Notes under the pieces: model-generated
The model's input: the letters and a program-made list of their open reading frames with translations, nothing else
Databases searched by the model: none
What the model was told of the DNA's origin: nothing
Shown here: positions 26,307 through 50,127 of the stretch, piece after piece
How positions within the stretch are numbered: the stretch's first letter is position 1
How the letters are laid out: each line of letters starts with the position of its first letter
Translations under genes and position numbers: made by a program
DNA from: a virus
Strand: one strand, 5' to 3'
IMG/VR virus record: IMGVR_UViG_3300050821_008386
Coordinates: 67,761-131,760 of that record
DNA: 64,000 nt

Positions 26307-27033
26307 TTAAAAGTATTTCCATCCGCGCGCGGGTGACATCGTTCCAATCATGAATCCGGTGATATTGCCGGACGCGATCATGCCAATGATGCGGCAAGCC
26401 TTCTGGCGTAAACATTTCATCGGTATGCCGCCACGTGTACAAAGGCCGTTGGAAAACGAACGCGTGAAACCCGAGGATATTGAATTCGGTCCAGGTCGGC
26501 GCGTTATGCATCAGGTCTTCGATCCGACACCCGTGCATCTGCTCAATCCGTTCCCGGCATTCTTTCAAGGTCCCGCGATGATAGGTGAACGGGAAACAGC
26601 GCATGAATTCGTGCAGTGGCGTCAAAGCCATCACCTGGCTAACCAGTAATTTCCATGGCGCATTTAACCGCTCGTATTCGGTGTACCAGATGATCGGTTT
26701 ACCCTCGATAAACAAGCTCTCCAGAGTGGTCGGCATCGCCAGCATAGCGTCCGAATCCATGAACGTGATGTACTCGCCGTTACAATAGTTGTCGGCGTGC
26801 ATCTTCATGTATTGCTGGTGCAGATAGCCTTTGTCGGGCCATTGATCCATCGGTGCCAGTTCAATCGGGTGACCGAGTACATCCTGCAATTTCTTCAGCG
26901 GTTCAGTGCAATCGTGCGGCGCCGAGATGACAAACTGCGATTCGGTTAACCAATTCTTTTTCAGGAACTTGAATGCCCACTCAAGGAATCCCAGATCTTC
27001 CAACTGCGTTTTAATGAAGACCGAGGACGTCAT
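26146..27033 (-). CDS. GT-A-like protein (DUF6492-like); start moved to 27033
   Basis: GYLHQQYMKMHAD, FMDSDAML, EFMR, EFNILG; ATGA overlap with the upstream gene. Confidence 0.65.
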   Translation of the reverse strand: MTSSVFIKTQLEDLGFLEWAFKFLKKNWLTESQFVISAPHDCTEPLKKLQDVLGHPIELAPMDQWPDKGYLHQQYMKMHADNYCNGEYITFMDSDAMLAMPTTLESLFIEGKPIIWYTEYERLNAPWKLLVSQVMALTPLHEFMRCFPFTYHRGTLKECRERIEQMHGCRIEDLMHNAPTWTEFNILGFHAFVFQRPLYTWRHTDEMFTPEGLPHHWHDRVRQYHRIHDWNDVTRARMEILLNGNREPDRDDAGGGVGPQGGPPKRERKKRASTGRRPRVRETDLASHNAGIVSG

Positions 27034-27836: not shown

Positions 27837-27951
27837 TTGCGAAAACTCCTACACTGCGTGCCTGTCCACTGTATCCTCTTCATCTTGAGTTTTATCAGAT
27901 CCATCCGAGAGCACAGTTCAGCAACCAGCGCTTTATCATAGGCGGCGTCGT

Positions 27952-28200
27952 TCACGATATCTCCACCTCGATCTCATACATTTTTTTGCTGCCGCTTTTA
28001 AAGGCGTTCCACGCGTCTTCAAATCCTGGCCGGAAATCCCTGACTCCATGCGCCTGCAACAGTCCGCCGTACCGATGCACCATGGCGTCCCATCCGGCCG
28101 CGAAACCTTTCAGCGCCTCGTGGTATTTCGGCGGTTCTTTTGCCAGCATCGCTTCCACTAATGTCATCGCAGTCCGTTCATGAAATCCGGCCTCCACCAT
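27952..28200 (-). CDS. Hypothetical phage protein
   Basis: In-operon small ORF; GFAAGWDA motif. Confidence 0.45.
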   Translation of the reverse strand: MVEAGFHERTAMTLVEAMLAKEPPKYHEALKGFAAGWDAMVHRYGGLLQAHGVRDFRPGFEDAWNAFKSGSKKMYEIEVEIS

Positions 28201-28523
28201 TTGCTCTTCATTACCTTCGACTCGATCGCGTCACACAACTGGGGCCTTGAGGGCAGATGATCTTTCACGTGCATTGTGGTTGTCAGATAACCTGCAAGCG
28301 CGATCAACGGTTCGTTATCGACTTCGACCTCGCGGCAGATCTGGTCGAGATCTTCCCATCGCTCTTCCCTGATCAGGCGTTCAACCCGATCGTATATGGC
28401 GTCCAGCATCATTTGCGCGCGTTTTAACGCTTTTGGAGTATCGCGCCTCCTGCGACGTAACTGTGGGTAGGGTGAGTTGAGTGATGCCATGCCAGAAAGT
28501 CGGGTATATCCGATAGATTCCAT
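28164..28523 (-). CDS. Hypothetical protein (true start probably near 28412)
   Basis: In-operon ORF; N-terminus overlaps the upstream gene. Confidence 0.45.
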   Translation of the reverse strand: MESIGYTRLSGMASLNSPYPQLRRRRRDTPKALKRAQMMLDAIYDRVERLIREERWEDLDQICREVEVDNEPLIALAGYLTTTMHVKDHLPSRPQLCDAIESKVMKSKWWRPDFMNGLR

Positions 28524-29095
28524 TGCGGCGACCGAGTGTTCCCGAACGCCGGATGAAACCAGATTTGTTCTTCGAACGTCTTGAGGGTCATCGGCGTCTC
28601 GTTGCGCGGATAAGCCATCCCCATCTCAGGTTCCACAAGGTCAAAGGTGATCCCGAGACATCCACCGGGTCGCAACACGCGCACGATCTCGTCAATCGCC
28701 AGTTGTTTGTTCGGTTGATGTTCGATCACACTGAAACTGGTTACCCAATCAAAATGGTTGTCCATGAACGGCAACCTCTCGTCTCTGACTATCCGGCAAT
28801 CACCCCGAAAATCTGGATTGGTTTCGACCATCGTTACCCGGTAACCGTACATCGCGCTTAACCACCGCGGCATAGGCGACGCGCCGCTCCCGATATCCAG
28901 CAAATGGTCGCAATCGTCTTTATCCGCATCGTACGACGCAAGGCCGTGATGAAAGATCCATGGATATTCCCAACGCCGGCAATATTGAACCGGACGTTTG
29001 TCGTAGTTCTCAAGGTCAGTCAGGAAAGCCCGGAACGAATCTGACTCCACTTCAGTCACGCTTCCGACCGCCGCTCTGTTGATGATGCCGGTCAT
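28424..29095 (-). CDS. Class I SAM-dependent methyltransferase; start moved to 29095
   Basis: RRWEYPW, LLDIGSG, LPFMDNHFDWVTSFSVIEH, RVLRPGG; ATGA overlap. Confidence 0.85.
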   Translation of the reverse strand: MTGIINRAAVGSVTEVESDSFRAFLTDLENYDKRPVQYCRRWEYPWIFHHGLASYDADKDDCDHLLDIGSGASPMPRWLSAMYGYRVTMVETNPDFRGDCRIVRDERLPFMDNHFDWVTSFSVIEHQPNKQLAIDEIVRVLRPGGCLGITFDLVEPEMGMAYPRNETPMTLKTFEEQIWFHPAFGNTRSPQWNLSDIPDFLAWHHSTHPTHSYVAGGAILQKR

Positions 29096-30339
29096 ACCCC
29101 CACCAACCTCACTTCCGGCAATGGAAAGATCATCTTGGTGCCCTTCTGTAACATGATCTTCTCGCGCTCCTTGAATTCCTTTTCGAAATGCCATGGTAAC
29201 ACCAGATAATAATCCGGGTTCATCGCACGCGATTCTTCTTCACTAATAATCTTGATGCCGCTCCCCAACATCGTGCATCCGTGTTTGTTCGGGTTCCGGT
29301 CTGCGGCGTATTCCACGAGGTTATAGTTGATGCGGCACCATTGCAGGATGGTATTACCCTTGGTCGAGGCACCGTAAACGTGGATAATCTTACCTTGCGC
29401 ACGCAAGTGAATCAAAAGATCCATCAGATCTTTTTTGCAGCCTTCGATCCGTTGCATGAACCCCTCGTAATCCGGCCCTGCCTCGCTCACCGCCAGTTTG
29501 CGCATATGTTCTGACCTGGTCTGGGTATGGTAAGCGCGACATTCTTCCCGGCAGGCGTATACCCGGATACTGCCGCCATTCGCCTCAGTCAGCGATGCCA
29601 TGAAGGGACGCAGTCCGCCGCGGTTCAGGATGTATTCCAGATCGGTGAACGCGTAATACTCCAGATGTTCAGCGCAAATGGTGTCGTACGAATTGTTCTT
29701 CAGCATCGTGGGCATGTGCGAGACTTCGATGACAAAGATGCCTTCAGGTTCCAGGAGTTCGCGAACGGCTCGTACGCATTCCACCGGATCTTCCAGATCA
29801 TAGAACATGGCTATTGCGGTCACGATGGCGAGTTTCCGGCCGTTTAAGCAGGTGACCAGTTCCATCGAGGGGAACATTTCCCCGATAATCTTGAATTCCA
29901 GCGCGGCATCTAAGCTGCGCGCATGCTCGCGCATAGCGACATTGGACGGGTCCACGCCTATCTTGGTGAACGAACGAGGATAATGCGACAGGAGCGTCCC
30001 ATCGTTACAACCGATATCGAGCACGGTCCCGCGCTGATTCGGGTAGATCGTCATCGCCTGATCGACGATCGCCTTGAGGTGATCGCGCATTGTGGCGTTG
30101 GTACCGCTCTGGTAGGCGTACCGCGAATAGAGCACGCTGGGGTTGACCGTGTTCTCCATCTGGAGCAGTCCGCACATATCGCAGGCGGCCAATGCGGTCG
30201 GGAACTTCTTGTCAGTAAAGAGCGAAGACGATTCCGAGTCAGGGAACATGCCTTGCAGATATTGTTCCCCCAGATCGATCACGCGTATCAGGGGCGCACC
30301 ACATACCCGGCACGTCCTATGCGGTTTCAGGATTTGCAT
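29092..30339 (-). CDS. NDP-hexose C-methyltransferase
   Basis: CRVCG/CDMCG Zn site, LDIGCNDGTLL, EHLEYY, YGASTKGNTILQ, LVLPWHF. Confidence 0.9.
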   Translation of the reverse strand: MQILKPHRTCRVCGAPLIRVIDLGEQYLQGMFPDSESSSLFTDKKFPTALAACDMCGLLQMENTVNPSVLYSRYAYQSGTNATMRDHLKAIVDQAMTIYPNQRGTVLDIGCNDGTLLSHYPRSFTKIGVDPSNVAMREHARSLDAALEFKIIGEMFPSMELVTCLNGRKLAIVTAIAMFYDLEDPVECVRAVRELLEPEGIFVIEVSHMPTMLKNNSYDTICAEHLEYYAFTDLEYILNRGGLRPFMASLTEANGGSIRVYACREECRAYHTQTRSEHMRKLAVSEAGPDYEGFMQRIEGCKKDLMDLLIHLRAQGKIIHVYGASTKGNTILQWCRINYNLVEYAADRNPNKHGCTMLGSGIKIISEEESRAMNPDYYLVLPWHFEKEFKEREKIMLQKGTKMIFPLPEVRLVGV

Positions 30340-37261: not shown

Positions 37262-37309
37262 TTGACTTGCATTGCAAAACGGAGGACAACCCCATGCAAG
37301 CGTATGCAT
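37262..37309 (+). promoter_or_regulatory. T4SS operon promoter with palindromic operator
   Basis: TTGACT-17-GACAAC, then ATGCA-AGCGTA-TGCAT (37294-37309) over the probable start codon. Confidence 0.55.
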
Positions 37310-37585
37310 TACATAATTCTCAATAATATCCTTGGCTTGCTTGCAGCGACGATGGATGTCGATACGGCTATTGGAAAGCTACTCGGCCTCATCGTCAAGT
37401 TCGGTTGGGTGGGCGGCGTGGGGCTGATGGTGCTCGGCGGCGTCTCAGCGTGGAGAGAGCATAATCTGACTGCGATTTCCGGTATTCTGATCGCTATTGG
37501 TGTCGCCTGTTGCGGTCCTTCGATTGTCGGCACGTTGATGGCGGCAATGAGCGGATTGAACGCGCAGCTTAACCCCACAGATTAA
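37304..37585 (+). CDS. VirB2/TrbC-like pilin
   Basis: ~93 aa, leader plus two hydrophobic helices, first gene before VirB3/VirB4. Confidence 0.68.
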   Translation: MHYIILNNILGLLAATMDVDTAIGKLLGLIVKFGWVGGVGLMVLGGVSAWREHNLTAISGILIAIGVACCGPSIVGTLMAAMSGLNAQLNPTD

Positions 37586-37588
37586 AAA

Positions 37589-37963
37589 ATGGCGGATACT
37601 CCCCCGCAGTTACAGATGATCCGCAACGACAACGCGGATGAGGTTCGGCCCGGTTGGGGCGTATTCGCAGGCCGATGGTCGATTGTTCCCTTTATCGCAG
37701 GGGCATGTTTCATCAGCCTGATGAACATCTCAGCGTTCATGGGACTGGATCTGGTCAGTTCACTCATCTTTGCGCTCTCCCCGGCAACCTTGATGACGGT
37801 GGCTGTCATTGTTTTCGTAAACCAGAAACCGCCGGGATACCCCTTGGAACTGGCTCAGATGTTCTGGTTCCGAGGGCACGAATGGCTCTACATCCATGGG
37901 TACACAGACGAGCCGCCTCAGATCTGGTATTCAGGTAAACCAGTGAGGCACCCGAGGTCATGA
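37589..37963 (+). CDS. VirB3-like inner-membrane protein
   Basis: Two TM segments then KPPGY; ATGA overlap with virB4. Confidence 0.62.
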   Translation: MADTPPQLQMIRNDNADEVRPGWGVFAGRWSIVPFIAGACFISLMNISAFMGLDLVSSLIFALSPATLMTVAVIVFVNQKPPGYPLELAQMFWFRGHEWLYIHGYTDEPPQIWYSGKPVRHPRS

Positions 37964-40620
37964 ACCGCATCCCGAACGGTTACCTGATCGATCGCTGCAA
38001 AGTCTGGTGCGAACCGGATGGTCAATTCGTGGTCAGTAAAGGGTCCAAAGCGGAGTTTCCCGATCTCTCGACCTCCGATGGGCAACATTGGTTGAACCTT
38101 GAATCGTCTTTACGCCAGTTGATGCGGTCAGTGAACGAGAGTGAACGCGTCCAGATCCTGTTCTATACCGGGCACGAGTTTAATCAACCTCTCGATCGTT
38201 ATGACCAGAAGACAGGGGCATGCAGGATAGAAATCTGCCGCGAAATACGCGAAGAGGTGTCGACCTATTTCCGTGATCGGATGCTGAACCAGAGTCTCGT
38301 CAACGCCAACGTCGAGATTCACGTCTCCAGCAAGTTCAAAGCTAAATCGTCGATGTTCGAGGATGCATTTGACGTTGTCCGCCGGAACGTCGAAGAACGA
38401 GGCGATTATTTCGATATGGTGGTCCGAGGGTTGGGCGGTTCAACTCAGCCTTTGGAGGACCGAGGTCATTACAACGCTCTGATGCGGCATTGGAGTCCCG
38501 GCACACCGTGTGGCAAGACGGACGATATTGATCTCAGTTCGTGTTTGGAAGATCTGGTCAGGCGTTCAGATGTGGCACCGAGAAACGGCAGCCGGGAAAC
38601 CGCGCACGGCTTTTATCTGGACGGCAAATATGTCGGCGTTTTCGTCGTTAAAAAGATGCCAAACGCTACATGGCAAAAGACCATGCAACCTTTTGTCACG
38701 ATGGCGATTCCAGGGCTGCGGATTTGCCTCAATATGCGCAAACTCTCTTCATTGGCTGAAGAGATGCATGATGACAAACGGGATTCCACGCTCTCGAAAA
38801 ACGCTGATAGCGCACGGGCTGTAGCCGGGAGACTCAAACATTTTGATCGGATCGTTCGGTTACAGAAAAACGAGGTGATGCCGTTCGCCGCTCAATTAAT
38901 CATCAGCATTTATGCCGATTCACCAGATCAATTGGATAGCCGGATGAACGCGACTCGTGTGGCGCTCGAACATTGCGGATGCCAAGCGTTTAATCCTGCG
39001 CTGACCACGAGCTCAGTCGCTCTCTTTAATTGCTCGACACCGGGATACGGACCATGGACAGGCTACACACCTTACTGGCTCAAGATCGACGACATTCATC
39101 TGGCGCATATGTGCCCGGTGGGGTCGACGCCAACGGGTAAACTCGATCAAGCCGATTGGTTGGTTTGTGGTAACCAGAATAATCTGGTTGGGTTCCCGTT
39201 CTTTATCGGCAGCCAACCATCTGATCTCATCGTCATGGGGAGTAAAGGCGGCGGTAAAAGCGCTACTACCCAGTACATGCTGCTTCAGGGCGCCCATCAA
39301 TTCGGGTTCTTAGGGTTTATCGATGAAGGCGCCTCATGGATCGAGACGGCAAGTCTTTTGGATCCGACATCGCGCCCGATTATTGTCGGCTCAAATTCAG
39401 GGCACACCTTTAATCCACTGGATACAAAAGGACTCGCTAAATCGCCGCAGCATACACGCAGTGCAATTGCTCTGATTCAACTGTTGGCTGGCAGAAGCGA
39501 CGATAAAGATCGGGATGCTGATCAGGCAGCGTTGATATCGCAAACCGTCAAAGCCTTGTACGAACGCGAGTTCGCTTATTGGAAGGTCAGGAATCCCAAT
39601 GATTATTATCAAGCGTGCCGGATAGCGAATTTGGCGTTACGAACTGTGGGCGAACATTTCGTGGATGCCGTTCAATGGCTCAAAGAAATGAAGCGGACGT
39701 CCCCGGACAAATATCGCGAAATCGACGGTGCATTGTCCGAGTCCGATGCCATGGCGTTAGCGAACGATCGCGACCTGAGTCATTTCATCAGTGACGCAGC
39801 GTTTTCCATGTGGACGCCCGATATGTTCCCGACGCTCTTTCATCTATGGGACGAACTGAACGCTCGTAAACGCGAGAAAGGCGCGTCACCGCTCTACGGT
39901 CCTTTAGCTTCACGATTAGAGCAATGGTTAGCGAACGGCGATTACGGGCCGATCGTCGATGGCGCGTCCAATATCGATTTAGGCACCAAGTTCATCACGC
40001 CTGAGAGTCCTCTGAAAGTGGTCCACTTCGAACTCGGCGAGATGAACAAATCAGAAGCGCGATTGAAAGAGGTCTTAGGATTTCTCCTCGCTAACGAGAT
40101 GCGCGCAGTGGTGCAGAATATGCCGAGGGCGATCCGTAAAGGGGTGATCATCGAGGAAATGACCAGTTTCTTGCGAGTCCCTAATGCGCAGGAAATCGTC
40201 ATCGATTACTCCGAGCGGATGCGGAAATACAATTGCTGGTTGGGATACGTCTTTCAGCAATATTCAGGACTGCTCAAAGCCGACAAACAGGTGGCTGAAG
40301 CGATCGTGGGTAATTCCTTGGCAATGATGCTGATGATGAATAAAAACCCCGAAGACCTGATTGCCCTCAACGATTACGTGCGAATCCCTGAACCGATCCG
40401 GCAAGCCGTTCAACAGTTTCCGCCACCTGAAAGTCTCCGTGGACGTAAAGACGCTTATGCCGGGTGCGTTTACGTGGATAAATCAGGGGCCCGCCCGGAG
40501 TTCACGATCTGCCGGGTGATGATGAGTGAGAAAGTCGAAGCAATCACCAATTCAAGCGGCGACAGGTTCGACGCTAAACGCAAAGCACTGATGCAACCAA
40601 GAGAGATGGCTACCGTATGA
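37960..40620 (+). CDS. virB4: VirB4-family T4SS ATPase
   Basis: 886 aa; Walker A GSKGGGKS, FIDEGASW, TFNPLD, YGPIVDG, Walker B IIEE, RMRKYN..QQ. Confidence 0.88.
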   Translation: MNRIPNGYLIDRCKVWCEPDGQFVVSKGSKAEFPDLSTSDGQHWLNLESSLRQLMRSVNESERVQILFYTGHEFNQPLDRYDQKTGACRIEICREIREEVSTYFRDRMLNQSLVNANVEIHVSSKFKAKSSMFEDAFDVVRRNVEERGDYFDMVVRGLGGSTQPLEDRGHYNALMRHWSPGTPCGKTDDIDLSSCLEDLVRRSDVAPRNGSRETAHGFYLDGKYVGVFVVKKMPNATWQKTMQPFVTMAIPGLRICLNMRKLSSLAEEMHDDKRDSTLSKNADSARAVAGRLKHFDRIVRLQKNEVMPFAAQLIISIYADSPDQLDSRMNATRVALEHCGCQAFNPALTTSSVALFNCSTPGYGPWTGYTPYWLKIDDIHLAHMCPVGSTPTGKLDQADWLVCGNQNNLVGFPFFIGSQPSDLIVMGSKGGGKSATTQYMLLQGAHQFGFLGFIDEGASWIETASLLDPTSRPIIVGSNSGHTFNPLDTKGLAKSPQHTRSAIALIQLLAGRSDDKDRDADQAALISQTVKALYEREFAYWKVRNPNDYYQACRIANLALRTVGEHFVDAVQWLKEMKRTSPDKYREIDGALSESDAMALANDRDLSHFISDAAFSMWTPDMFPTLFHLWDELNARKREKGASPLYGPLASRLEQWLANGDYGPIVDGASNIDLGTKFITPESPLKVVHFELGEMNKSEARLKEVLGFLLANEMRAVVQNMPRAIRKGVIIEEMTSFLRVPNAQEIVIDYSERMRKYNCWLGYVFQQYSGLLKADKQVAEAIVGNSLAMMLMMNKNPEDLIALNDYVRIPEPIRQAVQQFPPPESLRGRKDAYAGCVYVDKSGARPEFTICRVMMSEKVEAITNSSGDRFDAKRKALMQPREMATV

Positions 40621-40958
40621 TGATTCCCCGAACCGCGATAATCTTCGCGCTCTTTACCGCCGGATGCGCGGCGCCGCGCCAGTATCAAGGATACCAAGTC
40701 GGGCGCGACTATTACGCGCACCTCGATTCTAAACAGAAAGAGGTCTTCGATGCCGGTGCCGAGTATGCTACCAACGATATGGTCCAGCGGGAGTACGACG
40801 TTGAACGCCGAGCGATGCGTCATGATCTGCCAGGTGCGCGGCAAACGACTCAATTAAACAAGAAAATCGTGCCCGTCTCCGTCGACAGTTATACCGGTCC
40901 AGACGGTGTCGAGCATGATGCCGGTTACAAGTTTATCGAACTGAATTCGGTCCAGTAG
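40617..40958 (+). CDS. T4SS-associated lipoprotein
   Basis: Lipobox TAGC after a hydrophobic leader; ATGA overlap. Confidence 0.7.
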   Translation: MMIPRTAIIFALFTAGCAAPRQYQGYQVGRDYYAHLDSKQKEVFDAGAEYATNDMVQREYDVERRAMRHDLPGARQTTQLNKKIVPVSVDSYTGPDGVEHDAGYKFIELNSVQ

Positions 40959-40964
40959 AAAAGA

Positions 40965-42170
40965 GTGAAACGGTCGTGGCTGATAGTTGGCGTTCTTTTG
41001 CTCTTCGTGGGTAGATGCGAAGCGATCTATCCAGTGTACGATGCCGCCAATTACGTTCAGAACGTGCTGAACTATATCAAAGCGGGATTGGCTTACGTTA
41101 AGGACGCAGAGATCGAGGTGAACACGAATTTGACCGTCCTTCATCAGATCACGCAGATAGAAAATGAGATCCTGGAACTAGAGAGAATGGGCGATCCGCG
41201 GGTCCTCATCAACCTTCCCGGCATCGAACAAATCGCTAAACTTCAGCAGATCGTTATCCAAGCCCAGATCGATATCGCCAAGATCCGGGCATTCGTCAGC
41301 GCGGCCGGGATACAGGACAACTGCGACTCGATCATGCGGGCATACGGGTTCAGTTCGTGGCACGGATTCACCAGCGGATGGGGAGTAAAGTATTCGTGCA
41401 CCGTACCGCTCCTGCAATTCTCAACGTCCGATTATCAGGCGGATTCATACGCTCAATCGCGCGTTCAACAGTTGATGACGCAAAAACAGGATCTGCTCGC
41501 GCAACGGGATATTGCGATTGCAGGACAGAAAGCGGCAACCGACGACACCACGAAAATGAGTTATGCCGCCCAGATAACCGCCCTGAACGGCGCTATTGCG
41601 GATCTCGATCAATCGATCAATCAAACACTGGCGTTAGCGAACATCCAAGTGCGGATGAACGGATCAGCGCAGAACGTTTTTAACGGTATGTCAGGGCTAC
41701 AGACCCTAGCGGCATTCCAGCAACAGGAAGAATACGGAATAACGGCATTGGGCGGCACACCAACAGGAACCGCCCCCGGCTTACAGACAAACGGTACAGT
41801 AGTCGGCAACTCCAGCGAGTTCGGCTACATCGATAACCCGGCAATCGGCGGCACGGGCGATCCTGGAACATCCGGTTCATGGGATGTCGGAGCCGGGGGT
41901 GCCAATATCGGGTCACAAAACTCAACCGGGATAAGTTTACCGCTGGCAACCGAAGTCGCGATGTTCGGTAGCGAATCCAATGCGCTCGGTCAGAATGTCA
42001 TGGTGACCAATAATGCGACGGGCGCTTCGACAGTAACACAGATTGTTGATGTTGGGCCCGGCCAGTCATCGGTCGCTAAAGGCAACATCGTAGATCTTAC
42101 GTACGGGACGGCAGCGGCCCTCGGGACTGAGGGAAAATCAACCAACGTAACAGTGAGCAAAGTTCAATGA
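40965..42170 (+). CDS. VirB5/TrbJ-like protein with C-terminal RlpA-like double-psi beta-barrel
   Basis: Signal peptide, PVYDAAN..QITQIEN coiled coil; VMVTN..TG..IVDVGP..IVDLT..AAALG. Confidence 0.65.
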   Translation: MKRSWLIVGVLLLFVGRCEAIYPVYDAANYVQNVLNYIKAGLAYVKDAEIEVNTNLTVLHQITQIENEILELERMGDPRVLINLPGIEQIAKLQQIVIQAQIDIAKIRAFVSAAGIQDNCDSIMRAYGFSSWHGFTSGWGVKYSCTVPLLQFSTSDYQADSYAQSRVQQLMTQKQDLLAQRDIAIAGQKAATDDTTKMSYAAQITALNGAIADLDQSINQTLALANIQVRMNGSAQNVFNGMSGLQTLAAFQQQEEYGITALGGTPTGTAPGLQTNGTVVGNSSEFGYIDNPAIGGTGDPGTSGSWDVGAGGANIGSQNSTGISLPLATEVAMFGSESNALGQNVMVTNNATGASTVTQIVDVGPGQSSVAKGNIVDLTYGTAAALGTEGKSTNVTVSKVQ

Positions 42171-42553
42171 TCAAGGAAGTCATAGCAGCAACCGCGCTTG
42201 CGTCGAGCGCATACGCCAGCGGCAGTTTGCCAGTGGCGCACGAGTATAATCCGGCAAAACATTCTGGTGAATACGTAGCAACGGTCACTCGAGGCGGCCA
42301 ATCAGCGCAGGTCGAGGTCAAGGTATTCGGCCAGGAAGACGTGATCGCCGCACGCCTCGCCGGCGTGGCGCTGACAAGAGGATATCCGAACCATGCGCCA
42401 GCTGCCGAGATGGAAGCAGTGGTCAGGCAGAAAGCGATCGAACGCTGCGGTAACGATGAGGATATGGTCAGGATGTTCGTCAATGATGCCCGTGTTGCTT
42501 ATATCACCCGGATGCGGGCGCTGAACGCCAAGACGGGATTGAGTATCCGATGA
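42167..42553 (+). CDS. Exported hypothetical protein
   Basis: Signal-peptide-like N-terminus; ATGA overlap. Confidence 0.55.
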   Translation: MIKEVIAATALASSAYASGSLPVAHEYNPAKHSGEYVATVTRGGQSAQVEVKVFGQEDVIAARLAGVALTRGYPNHAPAAEMEAVVRQKAIERCGNDEDMVRMFVNDARVAYITRMRALNAKTGLSIR

Positions 42554-42984
42554 AGATCGCGGCAAAACCGACTCGCTATAACGGCGTCGAATTCAAGTCA
42601 CGTCTTGAGGCGCGTTTTGCCGAGATGCTCACGCACAAGCGGATGTTATGGGAGTACGAACCTCTTTCTACTTGGTTCGGGACGTATCAGCCAGATTTCT
42701 ACCTCCGCCATATGGGACACCAAGGCTTGTACGTCGAGATCAAACCTCGGGAATATATCGCAGAATTACAGATGTTCTGGAACGCCATATGGTCCGCTCC
42801 GGCGCCGTGGGTCTGCATAGATAAAGCGCATGGATTCCGAGATCAATGGGTGATAATTCAAGGTAACAGCAGGTTCAAAAGCGGGCTGCAGTTCTCTTCT
42901 GTCACCGTTCCTGTGAGTTTCAAGTCCTCCGGCGATCTCCATTACTTGGAAATAGAGACGGAAGGACTCCTCTATTCGCCATAA
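42550..42984 (+). CDS. Phage-type PD-(D/E)XK nuclease
   Basis: YNGVEFKSRLEARFA, WEYEP, YQPDFYL, YVEIKP. Confidence 0.82.
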   Translation: MKIAAKPTRYNGVEFKSRLEARFAEMLTHKRMLWEYEPLSTWFGTYQPDFYLRHMGHQGLYVEIKPREYIAELQMFWNAIWSAPAPWVCIDKAHGFRDQWVIIQGNSRFKSGLQFSSVTVPVSFKSSGDLHYLEIETEGLLYSP

Positions 42985-42989
42985 AAACC

Positions 42990-43013
42990 TTGACTGTGCT
43001 TGCGATAGCATGG
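42990..43013 (+). promoter_or_regulatory. Internal promoter with operator
   Basis: TTGACT immediately followed by GTGCT-TGCGAT-AGCAT; 17 bp identical to 60493-60509. Confidence 0.6.
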
Positions 43014-43032
43014 TAGACGCAATGCAAATCCG

Positions 43033-43992
43033 ATGACTAACCAGTTCTTACAGGCCATCTTTCCCGGGTTCAGCGCGGGCCTCCAATCCCTCCACAACGT
43101 CCTGATAGGGCCTGCGGCGTTGATCTGTATCGCTGGCATGTACCTACGGCTTCTGAAAGCCGGAGCGTCCACAAACGAAGTCTACGACGTTCTGGTGCGT
43201 GTTGGATTAGTCGTTGTGGTCATCAGCCAGGTGTACACGATTGGCGATATCCTCGTCCAACTGGCGACTGATCTGGTGACAGCTACCGGATGGAAAATCG
43301 ATCAGAACATGTGGCAGGATTATACGGTCGCCGTGATGACCAAATACAATCCGGTCACCCAACCCGGCAACAATAACCCGCTCCAGTTTTTTTCGAACGC
43401 GTTTCAGGGGGCGTGGATTGGCGCATGGGCCACGTTCGTCTATGGATTCTCCATTTTCGCTTCTGGACTGATGATGCTCTCGCGACTTCTGCAATCGATC
43501 CTGATTAATGTTGAGATGGGACTATCTCCCTTGTTCCTCGCGGCGATCGTGGTGCCGTCGCTTGTCACCCTCGCAACGCGTTGGGGTACAACGTTTATAG
43601 CTCTCTGCATGTGGACCGTGGGGTTTGCCATTGCGGACCTCGGCACCAAAGGATTTATGGATTTAGCGGTTAATCCCGGCAATAACGCAGTGCTTGGCGC
43701 GGCCAACGCTGTCGGTGCGTCCACGATGCTTTGGGTTTTCATGGGATTGTGGATCTGTTTCGTCTCGGTGATGGGACCGATACTGATCTGGAAAGCCATC
43801 GTGAGTAACGGCAGTCACGGTCTGCACATGATCCCCATGGCGATGATGGGCGCGGTATTCGCCGGAACCGCGATGGCAAAAGGCGCGATCGGCAACGTTG
43901 CGGCAGGTGGCAACGCCGCAGTGACACTCAGTTCGCCTCCCGCTTCTCGTAACGGCGTTGTCCGTCCCGGCTTTGCTAATTCACGACCATGA
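43033..43992 (+). CDS. virB6: VirB6/TrbL-like polytopic membrane protein
   Basis: ~7 TM segments, LSPLFLA..LATRW, Gly/Ala-rich tail. Confidence 0.75.
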   Translation: MTNQFLQAIFPGFSAGLQSLHNVLIGPAALICIAGMYLRLLKAGASTNEVYDVLVRVGLVVVVISQVYTIGDILVQLATDLVTATGWKIDQNMWQDYTVAVMTKYNPVTQPGNNNPLQFFSNAFQGAWIGAWATFVYGFSIFASGLMMLSRLLQSILINVEMGLSPLFLAAIVVPSLVTLATRWGTTFIALCMWTVGFAIADLGTKGFMDLAVNPGNNAVLGAANAVGASTMLWVFMGLWICFVSVMGPILIWKAIVSNGSHGLHMIPMAMMGAVFAGTAMAKGAIGNVAAGGNAAVTLSSPPASRNGVVRPGFANSRP

Positions 43993-44168
43993 GAAAACCA
44001 ATCCAGCTAACGTCCACATCACAGATATCGAAGGGAACGGGAGAAATCGTCACCACGTTATTCGCGTTGTCGGATGACGGTAAAATGTTCGTCTTAAAAA
44101 AGGGAGAGAAAGAATGGGAATGGATGGAAGTCCCCCCGCTCCCGCAACCGGCAGGACCAGAGTTGTGA
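43989..44168 (+). CDS. Small phage-type protein (59 aa, not in ORF track)
   Basis: Hand translation MRKPIQL..LFALSDDGKMF..WMEVPPLPQ; ATGA overlap. Confidence 0.6.
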   Translation: MRKPIQLTSTSQISKGTGEIVTTLFALSDDGKMFVLKKGEKEWEWMEVPPLPQPAGPEL

Positions 44169-44253
44169 AAGCAATGAAAACGATCCTCTTAATTTACTTT
44201 GCTCTCTCCGTCGTTGAAGCATTCCTCAAACTCTACGTGGCCTTGGCTGCAAA

Positions 44254-44589
44254 ATGACAAAGCCGCACGAATTACACCTGCCGCCGCATGACGACATGAT
44301 CACTCTGTGGTCCGGGGACCATTACACCGTAGCCCTGCACCAAGACGGGTTTATCCTCGCCGTCTATCTTGCGTGGTCACTGATTGGTCTGGCAGTCTAT
44401 CTATTCGGTCACGGACTAGCGCCGCGTCCACGCACTCTCTTAGGTTTATTCTGCGGGCCGGGTGCGTGGATTGCCGCCGGGTACAAATGTTATCACTTGG
44501 AAAAGCATCGGCGCGACGCGCTTCCACCACCTCTGCCGAAGCTCAAACCGCCTCCACTAAGACATTGGGAATTCAAGCCAAGGAACTAA
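44254..44589 (+). CDS. Membrane protein
   Basis: Two hydrophobic segments, LFCGPGAW, Pro-rich tail. Confidence 0.55.
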   Translation: MTKPHELHLPPHDDMITLWSGDHYTVALHQDGFILAVYLAWSLIGLAVYLFGHGLAPRPRTLLGLFCGPGAWIAAGYKCYHLEKHRRDALPPPLPKLKPPPLRHWEFKPRN

Positions 44590-45228
44590 ATGAGCGCAAT
44601 CGGAAATAAGATCAGGTCAGCATCTAAAAGCGCCAAACTATGGGCGACGCTCTTCGTTGTTTACGTGTTTGCCAGAGAAGGCATCGGCGCATGGCAACTC
44701 TATGATGCCACTCATTCCGCCTTGCGCGGATTTGTGGTTAACGATGAGACTTATTACGTCGGTCACGCTGACCCGGTTCTCCAGCAACGCGAAACGCATA
44801 TCCGTCTGGCGAAAACCGCAGCGATCGCAATGTACGGACGCAACCCGTACGGACTGGATCAGATGGAAACCTTGACCCGGATATTCAGTACGCCATGCCA
44901 GAAATTGATTCTGCAACACGTTGGGGATGACGCGGGAACATTCGCTTCATCCAGTATGAGTCAGGATTTCAAGCCGGATCGACCGATCATCGAAGTTGCC
45001 CGTGATAATACCTCTTGCACCATGCTGGTCGAAGGCGACGTGGTTCAGGTACGAGTTGAGCACGGAGTATCGATCCCTGATTCAAAACCGATGCGCCTCG
45101 TTTTTCGCTTGGAACGCAATGCAAGATTCGGTGAAGACGGGAAATTCCCGATGGTGGTCACCAAATTCACTGCGGACTACATCAAAGAGCATTCCCCTGA
45201 AACCCACACTGTAGCGGACACCAAATAA
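44590..45228 (+). CDS. VirB8/TrbF-like protein
   Basis: Single N-terminal TM then ~170 aa NTF2-sized domain; lies between VirB6- and VirB9-like genes. Confidence 0.6.
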   Translation: MSAIGNKIRSASKSAKLWATLFVVYVFAREGIGAWQLYDATHSALRGFVVNDETYYVGHADPVLQQRETHIRLAKTAAIAMYGRNPYGLDQMETLTRIFSTPCQKLILQHVGDDAGTFASSSMSQDFKPDRPIIEVARDNTSCTMLVEGDVVQVRVEHGVSIPDSKPMRLVFRLERNARFGEDGKFPMVVTKFTADYIKEHSPETHTVADTK

Positions 45229-46206
45229 ATGAATCCCCGAACAATCAGGCGAGCGTGGGTCATCACCCTCCTCGTTCTCGCGACGATCTTGTTGATAACG
45301 GATTTGTCGTTCTCGCAAGGTATCTCCACTAAACCCATTAACCCGAAACTGCCGACGCGAATCACCTTAAGCAGGGCCACAAGCACCACTATTTTGTTTC
45401 CTTCACAGTTTTCAGGGGTCTACGCGCTAGGGCTCGTTTTCAAAGATAAAGACACCAAGGGCAACTTGGTCGGGACAGTCCAAGGATGGTACGAAACGCA
45501 GCGACCCACGCCGATTCTGATCCTGCATTCATTAGTCGATAATCTCGACACGTTCATGACCGTCTATATGAACGATCAACTCTACACATTCGAACTGGTT
45601 ACAGGTCCGTATCCTGATGTGTCACTGACACTGACCAGCGGTAACGCGCCAGCGTCTTCAACGAAACTTCCCGAGATCGATGAGGACACTGTGGTCAAGA
45701 TGCGTCCACGATACGAACCGCAACTGTTAGCTGACATCATGGATCTGGCGCGAGAAGCGCCGTTAATCAAAGCGAGTTATCCAGAAGCGTACGCGGGATA
45801 CTCTGAGCGCAACGATATCCCGTACATCTCGGATGACGGTTTCGTACGTACCACAGTCACCCTGATTCAGAAGTTCAGCGATCGGGACGCTATCGTGATC
45901 AGCGGGAAAGCGGAGAACCTGACAAATACTCCTGTTCCATTTGATACCGCCCATGTCAGCATGGCAGTTGGCACTGTCCTGAAACCGATCACGGTTCTTA
46001 CTCCGACACGACCGATTCCGGCCAATAAAGCGGTTAATTTTACCGCGATCACAATAGGGGATGTCGGAGGCGGTCGCGCTGATATTGCGCTGGCAAACGA
46101 GTTCAGGTTGATCGTCGATTCAGGACATCATTCGGCACCCAGTGAGCCAACAGTCCCGGTCTTGCCTCCCGCGCCGCTCCTGCCACCGAAAGGATCCGTA
46201 AAATGA
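45229..46206 (+). CDS. VirB9/TraK-like outer-membrane core protein
   Basis: Signal peptide, ITLSRATSTTILFPS, beta-rich; precedes virB10. Confidence 0.6.
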   Translation: MNPRTIRRAWVITLLVLATILLITDLSFSQGISTKPINPKLPTRITLSRATSTTILFPSQFSGVYALGLVFKDKDTKGNLVGTVQGWYETQRPTPILILHSLVDNLDTFMTVYMNDQLYTFELVTGPYPDVSLTLTSGNAPASSTKLPEIDEDTVVKMRPRYEPQLLADIMDLAREAPLIKASYPEAYAGYSERNDIPYISDDGFVRTTVTLIQKFSDRDAIVISGKAENLTNTPVPFDTAHVSMAVGTVLKPITVLTPTRPIPANKAVNFTAITIGDVGGGRADIALANEFRLIVDSGHHSAPSEPTVPVLPPAPLLPPKGSVK

Positions 46207-47405
46207 GAGCGTTTTTAAAGAACGTCTTCTCGCAAAAAGGCGCGGTCGGACTGGCTATTTGTCTGGTGGGCATCTGGCTGATTCATAACGCGCTAGTAAC
46301 CCGAGAACATAACGCGCAAATGGCGGACGCTAAACGGCCAAAACAACCGTTAGCGCAGACTAATCCGAGTACGGTAGTTAATCCCGCAGTCGCGCAACCT
46401 GCGGTGATTGCGGACGGGAAAGAGCGGACCGGCCTTAACTATCATGCCAACGTCGAACAACCGATCGTGATCGAACCGGAAGCGACGCCGCAACCGAAAG
46501 TCGAAGATCTGCCGCCGATGGTCTTATGCGATTTCCCGGTGCCGACACCGACACCGTCACCGACTCCGAGCGCTCCCAAAGCGCAACGTCTCAAGCGCTG
46601 GTTGCCGCGTGGAGTCTATTTCCGAGTCGAGACACAAGGTGCCTTGATGTCTTCGCACATGGATACTCCCGTGCAGGTCAAGGTGACCGAAGACGTCTAT
46701 CAATGGGACGGCGGCCGTTCTGAATTGATTATTCCCGCCGGGACAAGGTGCAGCGCGTGGGCTACGCAAGGTTACACCCGTGATCGCCTTGAGGTAAAAG
46801 GCGACTGGATAATGGTGTTCCCGACAAACGGGTTCGAGTTGGAGTTCACCGGGATACTTTGCGAACAGGAATTTGACCCGCAACTGAACCAGTTCGGCAA
46901 GTTCGATAAGACAGCAGGGTTATTAGGCAAACTGATCGAGAGCGACGGTTATGTGCGGTTGAAAGCGGCGTTGGGCCTTGTTCTCCAGACGGCAGCGGAT
47001 AGCGCCAGTTCGTTCGCGTCCAGTGCGCTTCAGACCTCGATGCGCGGAGGGACAAGCGTCAGTTATAACGTTCCGTCGACTACACCATTCACCAACGAAT
47101 GGATCGAGCAACTGGTTAACGGCCATCATACGGCGATCAATGATACCCTCTACGTGCTGGTCCCGTCAGGGCATCAGGGATGGATCTTCACCACTTCAGT
47201 CATCGATCCTGACGTAGCCTCTATCGGGGCACGGATACAGGAAGAAGAAAAAGCCCGTAAACAGCGGGAAGAACAGCAGTACGAACGTACACAAAGCCCG
47301 GTCGATGCCGTTCTCCTTAAGCGCCTTCAGCAACCCGCCGAACAAACCCAAATCGATCCATTATCCAATGAACAGAAACCTGTTTCTGCCGCTCATTTTA
47401 ATTAG
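46203..47405 (+). CDS. virB10: VirB10/TrbI-like protein
   Basis: TM anchor, Pro-rich linker, LPRG..PVQVKVTEDVY..LIIPAGT..RDR..AGLLG..VLVPSG. Confidence 0.78.
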   Translation: MRAFLKNVFSQKGAVGLAICLVGIWLIHNALVTREHNAQMADAKRPKQPLAQTNPSTVVNPAVAQPAVIADGKERTGLNYHANVEQPIVIEPEATPQPKVEDLPPMVLCDFPVPTPTPSPTPSAPKAQRLKRWLPRGVYFRVETQGALMSSHMDTPVQVKVTEDVYQWDGGRSELIIPAGTRCSAWATQGYTRDRLEVKGDWIMVFPTNGFELEFTGILCEQEFDPQLNQFGKFDKTAGLLGKLIESDGYVRLKAALGLVLQTAADSASSFASSALQTSMRGGTSVSYNVPSTTPFTNEWIEQLVNGHHTAINDTLYVLVPSGHQGWIFTTSVIDPDVASIGARIQEEEKARKQREEQQYERTQSPVDAVLLKRLQQPAEQTQIDPLSNEQKPVSAAHFN

Positions 47406-47964
47406 CACCCTTGCCGGATGCGCCCAGCAACAAACCAAGACCCGCGAAATAACCGTGGTCAAACTGGATAAACTGCCAGCGTCCGCCAAAAAGAAAGGGC
47501 CAACCCAAAAGTTCACTGCGCAAGTCAACCTGACACCGGGCAAACTCAAGCCGCGGATGGTCGAGATCTATGATATCGGTCCAACCGTCGACAGCGACGG
47601 GAACCTTGTCGGTGAACACAAATATTACAAGGTGGTGGAGACTGAACGCTGGACTTATATCCCCCATACGCCGGCCACATTCCCGGCGTTCAAACAGGGT
47701 AAACCGAAAGTACAAGAGGCGGATGCGGTCGATCAAGCCAAGCGGGTGATGGAAGAGCTCAAAGCGGCGACCGCACAAGCCCGAAGTCAGATGCCTGCGG
47801 TTCAACCCGTAGCTAATCCCGGTCCAGGCGGAAACGCGACAGCAGAAGCACCGTTACCACAGACTGAAGGATTATCCCCGGTCCAGAGCGAGGTGGACAC
47901 CGCTCTTTCTCCTGAGAGGCAACAGGCGCTTAAAACGTTCGATCAACAGGCGCAGCAACCGTGA
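47368..47964 (+). CDS. T4SS-associated lipoprotein; start moved to 47368
   Basis: MNRNLFLPLILISTLAGC lipobox. Confidence 0.7.
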   Translation: MNRNLFLPLILISTLAGCAQQQTKTREITVVKLDKLPASAKKKGPTQKFTAQVNLTPGKLKPRMVEIYDIGPTVDSDGNLVGEHKYYKVVETERWTYIPHTPATFPAFKQGKPKVQEADAVDQAKRVMEELKAATAQARSQMPAVQPVANPGPGGNATAEAPLPQTEGLSPVQSEVDTALSPERQQALKTFDQQAQQP

Positions 47965-48839
47965 CCCTGTACGAAACCCTCACGTCCCAACTGATAGGGC
48001 AGAACGAGGTACTGTTCGAGGTTGCGGACCTGTTGGAACGGGCACAGGAAGGAATGTGCTACCAGGGGCAACCGCGTGCGTCAATCTTGATGCTAGGCCC
48101 GACAGGCGTAGGGAAGACTGAATGTGCCTTGATCGCCTGCAAAGCGCTGTACGGGACTCCTGAGCAGTGGATGGCCCGGTTCGATATGTCCGAGTACATG
48201 ACTGCTGACTCTGTGCTTAACCTTCTGGGAACGACACAGTATCGAGGCACGTTCGAGCATAAGACGAAGGCTATGAAAACAGGGGGCGTTATCCTCTTCG
48301 ATGAAATCGAGAAAGCGCACTCCGAAATTCTCAATACGCTCCTGCAGATATTGTCTGCTGGCAGGATAACCACAGGACAGGGAGAAGTCTTGGATCTCAC
48401 GGATTTCATCATTCTCGCGACAACAAACATCGGGTCACGAATCCTGATGGAAAGCCGGGATGACCGATGGGAAGTGGTGAGAGACAGGACCATCCGCGCA
48501 GCGCTTCAAGAGATCAGCCCTGAGATCCTGAATCGATTCGATCTTCTGGCGGCATTCAACAAGCTCAAACCCGAATCAATGGCAGAGATCACGGATCTGC
48601 ATGTGGAAACCGTGATCGCCATCCAAAGAGAGTTGAAAAATCAGGTCACGGTCGATCGATCAGCGCGCGACCATATCCAGAAGGCCGGGTTCAGCGACAT
48701 ATTCGGAGCGCGTCCCGTCCGCCGGGAGGCGATGAAGATCATTTCGAGGGCAATCAGGGAGAAACGGTCGGCGCCGGGTGAATCGGTGTCGGGCACCATC
48801 ACCTATAACGCAAAAACCAATCGCATCAGCATTGCATGA
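47961..48839 (+). CDS. Stand-alone ClpA/ClpB D2-like AAA+ ATPase
   Basis: LIGQ, GPTGVGKTE, RFDMSEY, LFDEIEKAH, TTNIG, PEILNRFD, FGARP. Confidence 0.9.
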   Translation: MTLYETLTSQLIGQNEVLFEVADLLERAQEGMCYQGQPRASILMLGPTGVGKTECALIACKALYGTPEQWMARFDMSEYMTADSVLNLLGTTQYRGTFEHKTKAMKTGGVILFDEIEKAHSEILNTLLQILSAGRITTGQGEVLDLTDFIILATTNIGSRILMESRDDRWEVVRDRTIRAALQEISPEILNRFDLLAAFNKLKPESMAEITDLHVETVIAIQRELKNQVTVDRSARDHIQKAGFSDIFGARPVRREAMKIISRAIREKRSAPGESVSGTITYNAKTNRISIA

Positions 48840-48997
48840 CCGAGAAGGAGCATCTGGACGCGCAAATTACCGTCCGAGTGACCGACGAGACTTACAGCAA
48901 ACTTGAGGCTCAAGCCAAAAAAGAAGGCAAGACCAAAAGCGACCTGATCAGAGAGGCAGCAGAGGAGAAATTAGCTAAACATGATAAAGCCAAGTGA
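48836..48997 (+). CDS. Ribbon-helix-helix (CopG/Arc-like) regulator (53 aa, not in ORF track)
   Basis: Hand translation MTEKEHLDAQITVRVTDETYSKLEAQAKKEGKTKSDLIREAAEEKL; ATGA overlap. Confidence 0.82.
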   Translation: MTEKEHLDAQITVRVTDETYSKLEAQAKKEGKTKSDLIREAAEEKLAKHDKAK

Positions 48998-49325
48998 CAA
49001 GACAGAAACCCTGAGAAGTCGGGTAGCTTCGACTTCTCCCAGTGATCTCACGGACCAGAAATATCTGCTCCATCATACACAGTTAAAGCGATGGTTCTCG
49101 ATTTGTGCCGGGAGCGCAGTAGGCGAAATGGACCGTGGGATGTACGACGACTGGAGCGGGCCTTATGATGAGATTGCCGTGGTTACCCACAAGAGAGAAT
49201 ACAACTTGGCACCGCGAGTGCGGCAACGGCCACCGTCAGATTATCGCACTGCAGAAGATCTGCAGGCGCAGATTCAGCGGGTCCGAGAAACTCATTGCCG
49301 TCACAACGGCATAGGCATTCACTAA
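48981..49325 (+). CDS. Hypothetical protein
   Basis: ORF filling the gap before a hairpin; start uncertain. Confidence 0.35.
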   Translation: MIKPSDKTETLRSRVASTSPSDLTDQKYLLHHTQLKRWFSICAGSAVGEMDRGMYDDWSGPYDEIAVVTHKREYNLAPRVRQRPPSDYRTAEDLQAQIQRVRETHCRHNGIGIH

Positions 49326-49335: not shown

Positions 49336-49363
49336 GCCGCCCCAATCCGAAAGTTGGGGCGGT
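49336..49363. terminator. GC-rich hairpin between convergent genes
   Basis: CCGCCCCAA-TCCGAAAG-TTGGGGCGG; no clear U-tract. Confidence 0.5.
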
Positions 49364-49377: not shown

Positions 49378-50127
49378 TTAGCCCGTGACAGCGGCGAGAT
49401 CTGATTGCAGCGACGCCATGTCTATTCCTGCCGGTGATTTCCCGGCTTTTAACCAGTCCGGGCTGAGAATGGCGTACGCTTCGTCGCAGTAGGCGTCCCA
49501 GAATTCCCACGACATCCGCATCAGTTGTCCCCACGTCACCACGGTCAGTCCGCCTTTGTCGTATTCAACGACGATGACGCAATGACCGCCCCACGAGCCC
49601 GGTTGACAGTCCGGGTTCCATGTCGGTCCAGCCACTACCCATGACGGTTGGTTCTGAGCCGAGATCGGTAAGGCAACACCGATTAAAACCGTCCCGAAGA
49701 CCAGTAGCGTCTCTTTGACGTGATCTTTGTTCCCGGTTTCCAGAGCGACATAAGCGTCAATCTTGTGGCCGCCGATACCCGTTTGCCGCCAATAGTTGAG
49801 GACATCAACCAGATTGCATCCGTTATCGTTGACGCCAGTGGCCGGGTTATATCCTGACACTGCGGAATAAGCGGCGATGATCTGGCTATCGGGTATTACG
49901 ACGGGGGTCCCGGTATTCTGGGTCCATCCAAGGATCGCGTGGCCGGGTCCGGCTATGGCGCAATCACCGATCGTATCGTTCTTCATCATTCCCCATTGTG
50001 TCCGGCTATCAGTCCAATCTTTGTTGGCCGGGATAGGCGGTAACAGGCTGGGCGAACGGTAGTCCGCGAGGCGTAAAGTGCGCGGGTTGTAAACAAATGG
50101 TTTTTTACCGAGTTTATAGAGAGGCAT
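49378..50127 (-). CDS. Papain-like (C1-type) cysteine peptidase-like protein
   Basis: NDTIGDCAIAG (Cys), WGGHCV (His), VVTWG. Confidence 0.7.
   Translation of the reverse strand: MPLYKLGKKPFVYNPRTLRLADYRSPSLLPPIPANKDWTDSRTQWGMMKNDTIGDCAIAGPGHAILGWTQNTGTPVVIPDSQIIAAYSAVSGYNPATGVNDNGCNLVDVLNYWRQTGIGGHKIDAYVALETGNKDHVKETLLVFGTVLIGVALPISAQNQPSWVVAGPTWNPDCQPGSWGGHCVIVVEYDKGGLTVVTWGQLMRMSWEFWDAYCDEAYAILSPDWLKAGKSPAGIDMASLQSDLAAVTG

Follow-up and report, generated by a model that had tools for sequence, protein, structure and literature searches.

A stand-alone Clp D2-type ATPase in a type IV secretion lineage without VirB11, carried by a soil phage-like element

Current models of type IV secretion systems (T4SSs) include three ATPase families: VirB4, VirD4-type coupling proteins and VirB11. 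In the IncW plasmid R388, the transfer proteins are the relaxase-helicase TrwC, the coupling protein TrwB and the ribbon-helix-helix (RHH) protein TrwA. AAA+ ATPases are accessory components of other secretion machines, namely ClpV (TssH) of the type VI and EccA of the type VII secretion system, and both of these have intact pore loops. Here we analyse a stand-alone AAA+ ATPase of 292 amino acids (aa), related to the second ATPase ring (D2) of Clp/Hsp100 proteins, which is encoded in a T4SS operon of a soil phage-like element. The element is IMG/VR virus record IMGVR_UViG_3300050821_008386 (131,760 bp, contig G000:C1), and the window, by which we mean the whole stretch of 64,000 nucleotides that was analysed, is its second half (positions 67761-131760). 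A T4SS with a Clp-derived ATPase riding on such an element is what this window adds.

In fold, the protein compares with nucleotide-binding domain 2 (NBD2) of ClpB/Hsp104 (Thermus thermophilus, PDB codes 4LJ4-4LJA, 4FCT-4FD2 and 1QVR). The two share the AAA_2 large and D2-small domains and the Walker A and B, sensor-1, Arg-finger and GAR sensor-2 motifs, whereas the window ATPase stands alone, without N domain, D1 ring or M domain, belongs to a clade that lacks the GYVGY loop, and is encoded within a T4SS cluster and not as a stress gene. With VirB11, TrbB, TrwD and DotB it has in common that it is a soluble cytoplasmic ATPase encoded with mating-pair formation (MPF) genes, the third after VirB4 and the coupling protein, and it occurs precisely where there is no VirB11; the folds are unrelated (AAA_2 against PF00437, T2SSE), and we infer an equal role only. 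The wider module resembles that of R388 in its TrwC-type relaxase with a helicase domain, its TrwB_AAD_bind-type coupling protein and its small RHH protein. Unlike R388, it has MPF proteins too divergent for Pfam models, no VirB11 homologue, an extra AAA+ ATPase and, in the phage-like element, DNA transfer and replication (DTR) genes far from the MPF operon. The ClpV1 model TIGR03345 matches the D2 region of the ATPase at 6.4e-34 and the EccA model TIGR03922 matches it weakly, but those proteins have extra domains or two rings, in contrast to the single ring module with a deleted loop described here. We found no paper that ties a Clp-type ATPase to a T4SS operon among open-access papers and preprints, supplements excluded, where the profile lists of PMC4027160 could be relevant, and the link is apparently unpublished; the terms 'Clp', 'AAA+' and 'phage' are all absent from the main text of a nomenclature review of 2025 (PMC12857230).

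The ATPase family and its VirB4 lineage

The open reading frame (ORF) at 47961-48839 (+) begins with GTG and encodes a protein with two Pfam matches over cut-off, PF07724 AAA_2 (7.6e-33, 114.3 bits, residues 38-194) and PF10431 ClpB_D2-small (9.2e-8, 32.5 bits, residues 202-265). The NCBIfam ClpB model, which has 853 positions, is matched only at 559-828, that is, at D2 alone. The protein is therefore a single D2-type AAA+ module without the two-tier architecture and N domain of Clp/Hsp100 proteins, or the M domain of ClpB. Its frame cannot be extended, as ORF calling begins at the first start codon after a stop, and a relative with 69% identity (P0003) begins at the same residue. PHROG 4871, 'ATP-dependent protease', is matched at 2.2e-63 over profile positions 460-751 of 764, and among solved structures phmmer against PDB ranks Thermus thermophilus ClpB, with its isolated NBD2, as the best relative (1.8e-49). 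An AlphaFold2 model built from a 16-sequence alignment has a mean predicted local distance difference test (pLDDT) score of 91.9, and its top Foldseek matches are ClpB NBD2 crystals (E ~1e-27, template modelling score 0.78-0.84, 32% identity). Hydropathy reveals no hydrophobic or transmembrane (TM) segment.

Walker A K52, Walker B D114/E115, sensor-1 N156 and the Arg finger R192 are kept in all 56 members of the clade described below, and the GAR sensor-2 motif (GARP) is present in the window ATPase. Because the Arg finger acts in trans, these motifs imply an oligomeric, ATP-hydrolysing assembly. The pore differs. Every full-length D2 has a substrate-gripping Tyr loop (APPGYVGYEEGG), which is 5-6 residues shorter across the stand-alone clade, with GYVGY removed, so that the aromatic pore loop (GYVG) of Clp unfoldases is absent at the level of the family. 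The window ATPase itself has Y94-R95-G96 in the loop, which HMMER, but not MAFFT, aligns to the Tyr of ClpB GYVG. Across the 56 sequences, most have E, D, S or H at position 94, Tyr is not among the six commonest residues listed there, and in the AlphaFold2 model the loop consists of residues 90-96 only, between two helices. With the canonical GYVGY loop deleted, a classical threading unfoldase is doubtful. A ClpP partner was also considered and rejected, as the sequence has no IGF/IGL-type tripeptide loop, judged by eye.

A length-restricted protein search returned a large set of stand-alone relatives (~285-330 aa, 40-69% identity), and in the ESM Atlas the ATPase falls into a 922-member cluster of ~305-aa proteins in which Verrucomicrobiota is the commonest phylum. 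A FastTree phylogeny of 96 sequences comprised 41 T4SS-linked ATPases, 15 more family members and the D2 domains of full-length Clp proteins (25 cellular, 15 viral). The 56 stand-alone sequences all group in a single clade (support 1.0), apart from the 40 D2 domains. Within it, a phage-like and metagenome subclade (the window ATPase, that of viral contig G004 and many ~305-aa metagenome proteins) is sister to a Verrucomicrobiota chromosomal subclade; the placement of the window ATPase in a subclade that this tree separates from the chromosomal one is new here. Many viral contigs in IMG/VR (L091-L169) encode a separate Clp-like protein of ~670-690 aa, which has its own tree branch and 30-35% identity to the window ATPase over D2.

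An earlier reading of the window from its letters and ORFs (hereafter the sequence-only reading) had proposed a survey of the neighbourhoods of this ATPase, and such a survey links it to one VirB4 lineage in chromosomal, viral and metagenome loci. The ATPase profile matched 6 of 401 Verrucomicrobiota genomes at E <= 1e-90, an undercount as five candidates were scored per genome, and at each of the six loci a VirB4 of the lineage lies within 10 kb. Pfam searches of the 100 ORFs of these loci found AAA_2 in 6, P-loop_TraG in 6, TrbI in 4 and TrwB_AAD_bind in 2. Starting from VirB4, a profile identified 49 copies in 36 of the 401 genomes, of which 46 were taken in (G015:C19, G240:C76 and G132:C8 were left out); at 39 of the 46, a six-frame search found a stand-alone homologue no more than 14.4 kb away, in an open frame of 299-470 aa. 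Gene order varies among them. The ATPase gene is at the end of the operon at 14 loci, 6.5-7.2 kb downstream of VirB4, an arrangement shared with the window; it is divergent and 0.7-1.3 kb upstream of VirB4 at 19; and it lies further downstream at 2 and upstream on the same strand at 4. No genome among 301 in the phylum of a Gemmataceae metagenome-assembled genome matched the VirB4 profile at E <= 1e-60.

Viral contigs were reached with alignments, whereas one ATPase or one VirB4 sequence as query gave no matches among them. The ATPase alignment (A1) recovered two viral contigs, each encoding a stand-alone relative that is 43% identical, and both share the window order of VirB4, 401-aa protein, VirB6-, VirB8-, VirB9- and VirB10-like proteins, lipoprotein and ATPase. 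In G004 (66.5 kb, CheckV 100%), a coupling-protein gene directly follows the ATPase gene and a TrwC-like relaxase is also encoded. The VirB4 alignment (A3) added two more contigs, L255 (65 kb), with the ATPase downstream, and L254, which ends too early. Synteny as in the window is thus seen in G004/L105, L090 and L255, of which L090 and L255, having the same identity figures to the window protein, are possibly near-identical elements. In genome contigs, A1 matched nothing but full-length Clp genes and cut-off fragments.

For metagenomes, a degenerate motif specific to the stand-alone family gave 79 loci: 36 with a family match of >=150 aa, 4 with short fragments only and the remainder chance pattern matches. 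Lipoprotein and VirB10 homologues lie upstream on the same strand at 14 of 15 metagenome loci with >=1.5 kb of upstream sequence. Where >=1.5 kb is available downstream (15 loci), a coupling protein follows directly in 8 (gap 48-1848 bp) and a relaxase in 1. The coupling-protein gene adjoins that of the ATPase in at least 8 metagenome loci, in G004 and in L207.

Over 41 loci, pairwise identity of the ATPase closely tracks that of VirB4 (Mantel r = 0.943, reached by none of 2000 permutations). Since the loci are related by descent, the correlation points to inheritance as one unit and not to independent co-evolution. Judged from gene neighbourhoods and phylogeny, we regard the ATPase as a real, conserved component of a VirB11-less T4SS lineage and not as a stray chaperone.

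The operon and its carrier

The genes from 37262 to 49325 of the window, and the hairpin that follows them, are as follows (homologues are from the viral contigs and Verrucomicrobiota loci introduced above).

37262-37585, +: 107-aa protein, likened to pilin (VirB2) only for its position; two hydrophobic helices seen as TM-like segments, no Pfam match
37589-37963, +: 124-aa VirB3-like membrane protein directly before VirB4; two TM-like segments
37960-40620, +: 886-aa VirB4/TraC-like ATPase (NCBIfam, P-loop_TraG, homologues)
40617-40958, +: 113-aa lipoprotein in VirB7-like position; lipobox FTAGC, weak homologue in G004
40965-42170, +: 401-aa secreted protein kept in related operons; signal-like N terminus
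43033-43992, +: 319-aa polytopic membrane protein, VirB6-like; four TM-like segments, homologues in G004, L090, L255, L186 and L187
44590-45228, +: 212-aa protein in VirB8-like position; same-position homologues in G004, L090, L255, L187 and L189, no Pfam match
45229-46206, +: 325-aa secreted protein in VirB9-like position; homologues in related loci
46203-47405, +: 400-aa VirB10/TrbI-like protein, named via homologues; N-terminal TM segment
47368-47964, +: 198-aa lipoprotein, lipobox LAGC; its TGA stop overlaps the GTG start of the ATPase gene
47961-48839, +: 292-aa stand-alone Clp/Hsp100 D2-type AAA+ ATPase (Pfam, NCBIfam, PHROG, PDB, AlphaFold2, Foldseek, clade and motif analysis)
48836-48997, +: 53-aa RHH protein, NikA-like; its ATG overlaps the TGA of the ATPase gene
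48981-49325, +: 114-aa ORF, function unknown; last of the operon, followed by the hairpin; without Pfam, PADLOC or PHROG match
49337-49362, no strand: GC-rich hairpin with a 9-bp stem and 8-nt loop, between the operon end and a convergent minus-strand gene (49378-50127)

Apart from the ATPases and the RHH protein, the operon proteins have no Pfam, PHROG or NCBIfam matches and take their names from homologues. VirB4 itself matches TIGR02746 (5.3e-18), NF045971 (1.9e-10) and TIGR00929 (2e-9), all under curated cut-offs, and P-loop_TraG at 24.7 bits; it is a full-length homologue of a VirB4 lineage whose members pass the P-loop_TraG cut-off. Identity to VirB4 of G004, L254 and L255 is 39-40% across ~895 aa and to six Verrucomicrobiota VirB4 proteins 26-30%, and the Walker A motif GxxGxGKS is invariant in the VirB4 alignment. 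Two loci, L164 (G164:C13) and L219 (G161:C10), have a VirB4 of the lineage in which a single in-frame stop (one TAG, one TGA) interrupts a match that is otherwise full-length. The VirB3-like protein has 34.7% identity to the ORF before VirB4 in G004 and 31% in L254 and L255, and the 401-aa secreted protein 26-28% to the same-position ORFs of G004, L090 and L255. For the VirB6-like protein, the L186 counterpart has a weak TrbL/VirB6 match (17 bits, under cut-off). The VirB9-position protein has 37-39% identity to ORFs of G004, L090 and L255, with weaker Verrucomicrobiota matches, and the VirB10-like protein 31% (E 9.7e-26) to L186:8055-9272, which itself matches Pfam TrbI at 46.4 bits (cut-off 35).

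NCBIfam and Pfam bear out the statement of the sequence-only reading that VirB4 and the 292-aa Clp-type protein, whose gene lies 7.3 kb after that of VirB4, are the only ATPases of the operon. Its picture of a ClpB-D2-like ATPase that closes the operon holds for the stand-alone D2 near the end, but the RHH gene and the 114-aa ORF still follow. The coupling to the lipoprotein gene, likewise, is real here as a GTG/TGA overlap but is local only: homologues of the lipoprotein lie after VirB10 in G004, L090, L184, L186 and L187, sharing the motif H..Y.V.E..RW/DLRL, and in related loci the lipoprotein is conserved with VirB10, not with the ATPase. We rejected the lipoprotein as a partner of the ATPase, as it stays behind VirB10 where the ATPase gene sits upstream of VirB4 and as it is exported, while the ATPase has neither signal nor TM segment.

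The RHH protein matches RHH_1 (36.7 bits) and a NikA-like mobilisation-protein model (35.8 bits), both over cut-off, and is a candidate relaxosome accessory protein. Its gene may mark a nearby origin of transfer (oriT); an RHH gene next to the ATPase is not conserved in G004, L090 or L186. The hairpin has no T run and is absent from the terminator-scan list. The convergent gene at 49378-50127 (-) encodes 249 aa and matches PHROG 19005 (function unknown) over its full length at 1.6e-32.

The record is classed as linear (CheckV 91%), and its carrier genes are of phage type by Pfam and PHROG: a terminase (phrog_2, 1.1e-12), a tail-collar domain (2.5e-19) and a tail-fibre-like protein. The sequence is carried by 7 soil-metagenome DNA runs and 0 RNA runs, which has no bearing on expression. 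A run of sugar-modification genes at 22583-30339 (-) of the window, unusual for a phage-like record, comprises genes for a heptosyltransferase-like protein, a UDP-GlcNAc 2-epimerase-like protein, an FkbM methyltransferase, two DUF6492 proteins, a class I methyltransferase and a C-methyltransferase. Three giant ORFs, of 2347 aa (window 11072-18115, -), 1346 aa (window 2024-6064, -) and 3555 aa (G000:C1:40915-51582, -), have almost no family matches; the 1346-aa protein has a homologue in G004.

Coupling protein, relaxase and VirB11

We searched the whole record in six frames with hidden Markov models (HMMs) of PF02534, PF10412, PF12696, PF00437, PF08751, PF03432 and PF01580. The window has no match to any of these seven (MOBQ, MOBV, MOBH and MOBT profiles were not searched), and PF02534 and PF03432 have none anywhere in the record. 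Two DTR genes lie on the same contig, 49-58 kb before the window and far from the MPF operon.

G000:C1:9354-12125, outside the window: 923-aa TrwC-type relaxase-helicase; TrwC PF08751 184.5 bits (six-frame), 180.9 as protein
G000:C1:16856-18232, outside the window: 458-aa TrwB/TraG-type coupling protein; TrwB_AAD_bind 46.6 bits and TraG-D_C 36.8 bits, over cut-off

The relaxase carries an AAA_30 helicase domain (125 bits), and its His-rich motif (His triad) aligns to TrwC of PDB 1OMH. The element thus encodes a canonical MOBF relaxase and a coupling protein and, by gene content, the conjugative module on the record (MPF, coupling protein and relaxase) is complete, the window being its MPF half. 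The sequence-only reading was right that no VirD4, relaxase or VirB11 is visible in the 64 kb and that the missing genes could lie outside it. It had added that a VirD4 and a relaxase elsewhere on the contig would make this an ordinary conjugative module, and the HMM search found both, on the first half of the contig. Its two explanations of the gap, non-canonical substrate recruitment or a machine that makes only a pilus or channel, are therefore unneeded. For that reading as it stands, our result is above all deflationary: the 'missing' genes for the coupling protein and the relaxase simply lie outside the window.

For VirB11, PF00437 gives only a 14.7-bit, P-loop-level match in the record, inside the coupling-protein ORF, where PF01580 also has its only match (15.4 bits, P-loop level). 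There is no PF00437 match within 200 kb of six VirB4 loci (four genomes) and none in G004, which indicates a VirB4 lineage without VirB11 throughout the sampled loci. VirB11 is truly absent, yet its absence alone is ordinary (Guglielmini et al.).

The coupling proteins of two phage-like elements, the 458-aa protein of this record and a 471-aa protein at L192:9771-11186, have no TM-like segment by hydropathy; their chromosomal Verrucomicrobiota homologues (L186:14860-16353, 497 aa, and L184:107-1639, 510 aa) begin with one or two TM segments. In L186 a Ser/Thr kinase with a peptidoglycan-binding domain (12593-14566, -) is encoded between the T4SS operon and the coupling-protein gene, and Pkinase is found in 2 of the 6 loci.

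Possible roles of the ring

We consider it rather probable that a Clp-D2-derived ATPase has become fixed in a VirB11-less T4SS lineage, where it forms a ring and works with the coupling protein as a third ATPase. This reading builds on the identity and fold of the protein, its intact ATPase and Arg-finger motifs, the monophyly of the family, and its tight linkage to and co-divergence with VirB4. The ATPase would descend from the D2 ring of a Clp/Hsp100 protein and would have become a fixed component of one lineage, made up of Verrucomicrobiota chromosomal elements and sister phage-like elements. It would sit as a nucleotide-driven ring on the cytoplasmic side of the machine, in the place taken elsewhere by VirB11, TrbB or DotB. 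Its probable partner is the coupling protein, often encoded next to it, and it would remodel the relaxosome or the inner-membrane complex; because the loop is deleted, it would not thread polypeptide through a Tyr-lined pore. Several points weigh against this reading. To speak of VirB11 replacement is an analogy and not a necessity, because many T4SS classes work without a third ATPase (PMC4027160). The ATPase may be dispensable, because 7 of the 46 VirB4 loci lack it in the DNA examined, 2 of these being cut by contig ends. Several metagenome loci share identical spacings and are probably one element sampled repeatedly, so they are not independent, and the loci within the element family are related, so that the Mantel data are not independent observations either. 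A predicted complex of the coupling protein (alignment A4) and the ATPase (A1) scored 0.00 against a mark of 0.32, without controls, and is used neither way. A more far-reaching version, which we hold to be rather unlikely, makes the ring a new T4SS motor that displaced VirB11, lost its Tyr loop, stacks with the coupling protein and loads or pumps relaxase-bound single-stranded DNA (ssDNA). Given the anchor-less coupling protein of the phage-like elements, a soluble ATPase pair might there hand phage or element DNA to the channel.

The sequence-only reading had suggested an AAA+ unfoldase within the secretion machine. Membership of the machine is strongly supported by linkage and clade, but the unfoldase role is weakened by the lost Tyr pore loop. 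If it were a dedicated substrate unfoldase, the Clp-type ring would unfold the 923-aa relaxase that is covalently attached to the transferred strand (T-strand) and feed coupling protein and channel. Descent from a threading motor would suit this, as would the position of the gene between MPF genes and coupling-protein or relaxase genes in many loci, and the window ATPase does have a Tyr that HMMER aligns to that of ClpB GYVG; relaxases, moreover, need unfolding for transfer, by an unfoldase described as unknown (PMC5826034). The stand-alone clade, however, deletes the 5-6 residues that include GYVGY, so that an aromatic grip is not a family feature, and there is no N-terminal or M domain that could bind substrates or adaptors. 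We judge a relaxase unfoldase unlikely and, owing to the family-level loss of the pore loop, rank it below the general third-ATPase reading.

Another alternative is a motor for nucleic acid or the relaxosome. RuvB, a member of the AAA+ clade to which Clp D2 belongs, is a DNA motor. A ring that has lost the Tyr loop and grips ssDNA or oriT-bound proteins via basic pore residues could help the coupling protein to pump or load the T-strand. In many members the conserved Gly96 has an Arg neighbour (at position 95 in 12 of 56 sequences and at 97 in 20 of 56), the ATPase gene is translationally coupled to the NikA-like RHH gene in the window, and it adjoins the coupling-protein gene in the loci listed above. 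The basic residue is not at a fixed position, however, and the neighbouring RHH gene is not kept in G004, L090 or L186; in our estimate such a motor is quite improbable. Least probable is unrelated cargo, a phage chaperone or disaggregase, or a part of a defence or anti-defence system, that merely lies beside T4SS genes. Clp-like genes are frequent in phages, and phage records searched with tblastn yielded only Clp matches at <=36% identity (183 records), besides the match to phrog_4871. PADLOC gave partial matches to PDC-M37B (97 bits) and DolB (65 bits), which cover the ATPase core only, and membership of a defence system was rejected on that account. The linkage to VirB4, though, outlasts changes of gene order and spans chromosomal to phage-like elements, and the family forms one clade apart from the D2 of cellular and viral full-length Clp and diverges together with VirB4; the cargo reading is already disfavoured.

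If a fourth, Clp-derived ATPase is fixed throughout a T4SS lineage, the T4SS picture would gain a component. The ATPase would also be a concrete candidate for the question, left open in PMC5826034, of what remodels or unfolds the relaxase; if it proved to be an unfoldase, it would answer which enzyme unfolds T4SS substrates, whereas the deleted pore loop argues for a different mechanism. The presence of the same module on virion-encoding elements bears on the exchange of machinery between phages and conjugative elements.

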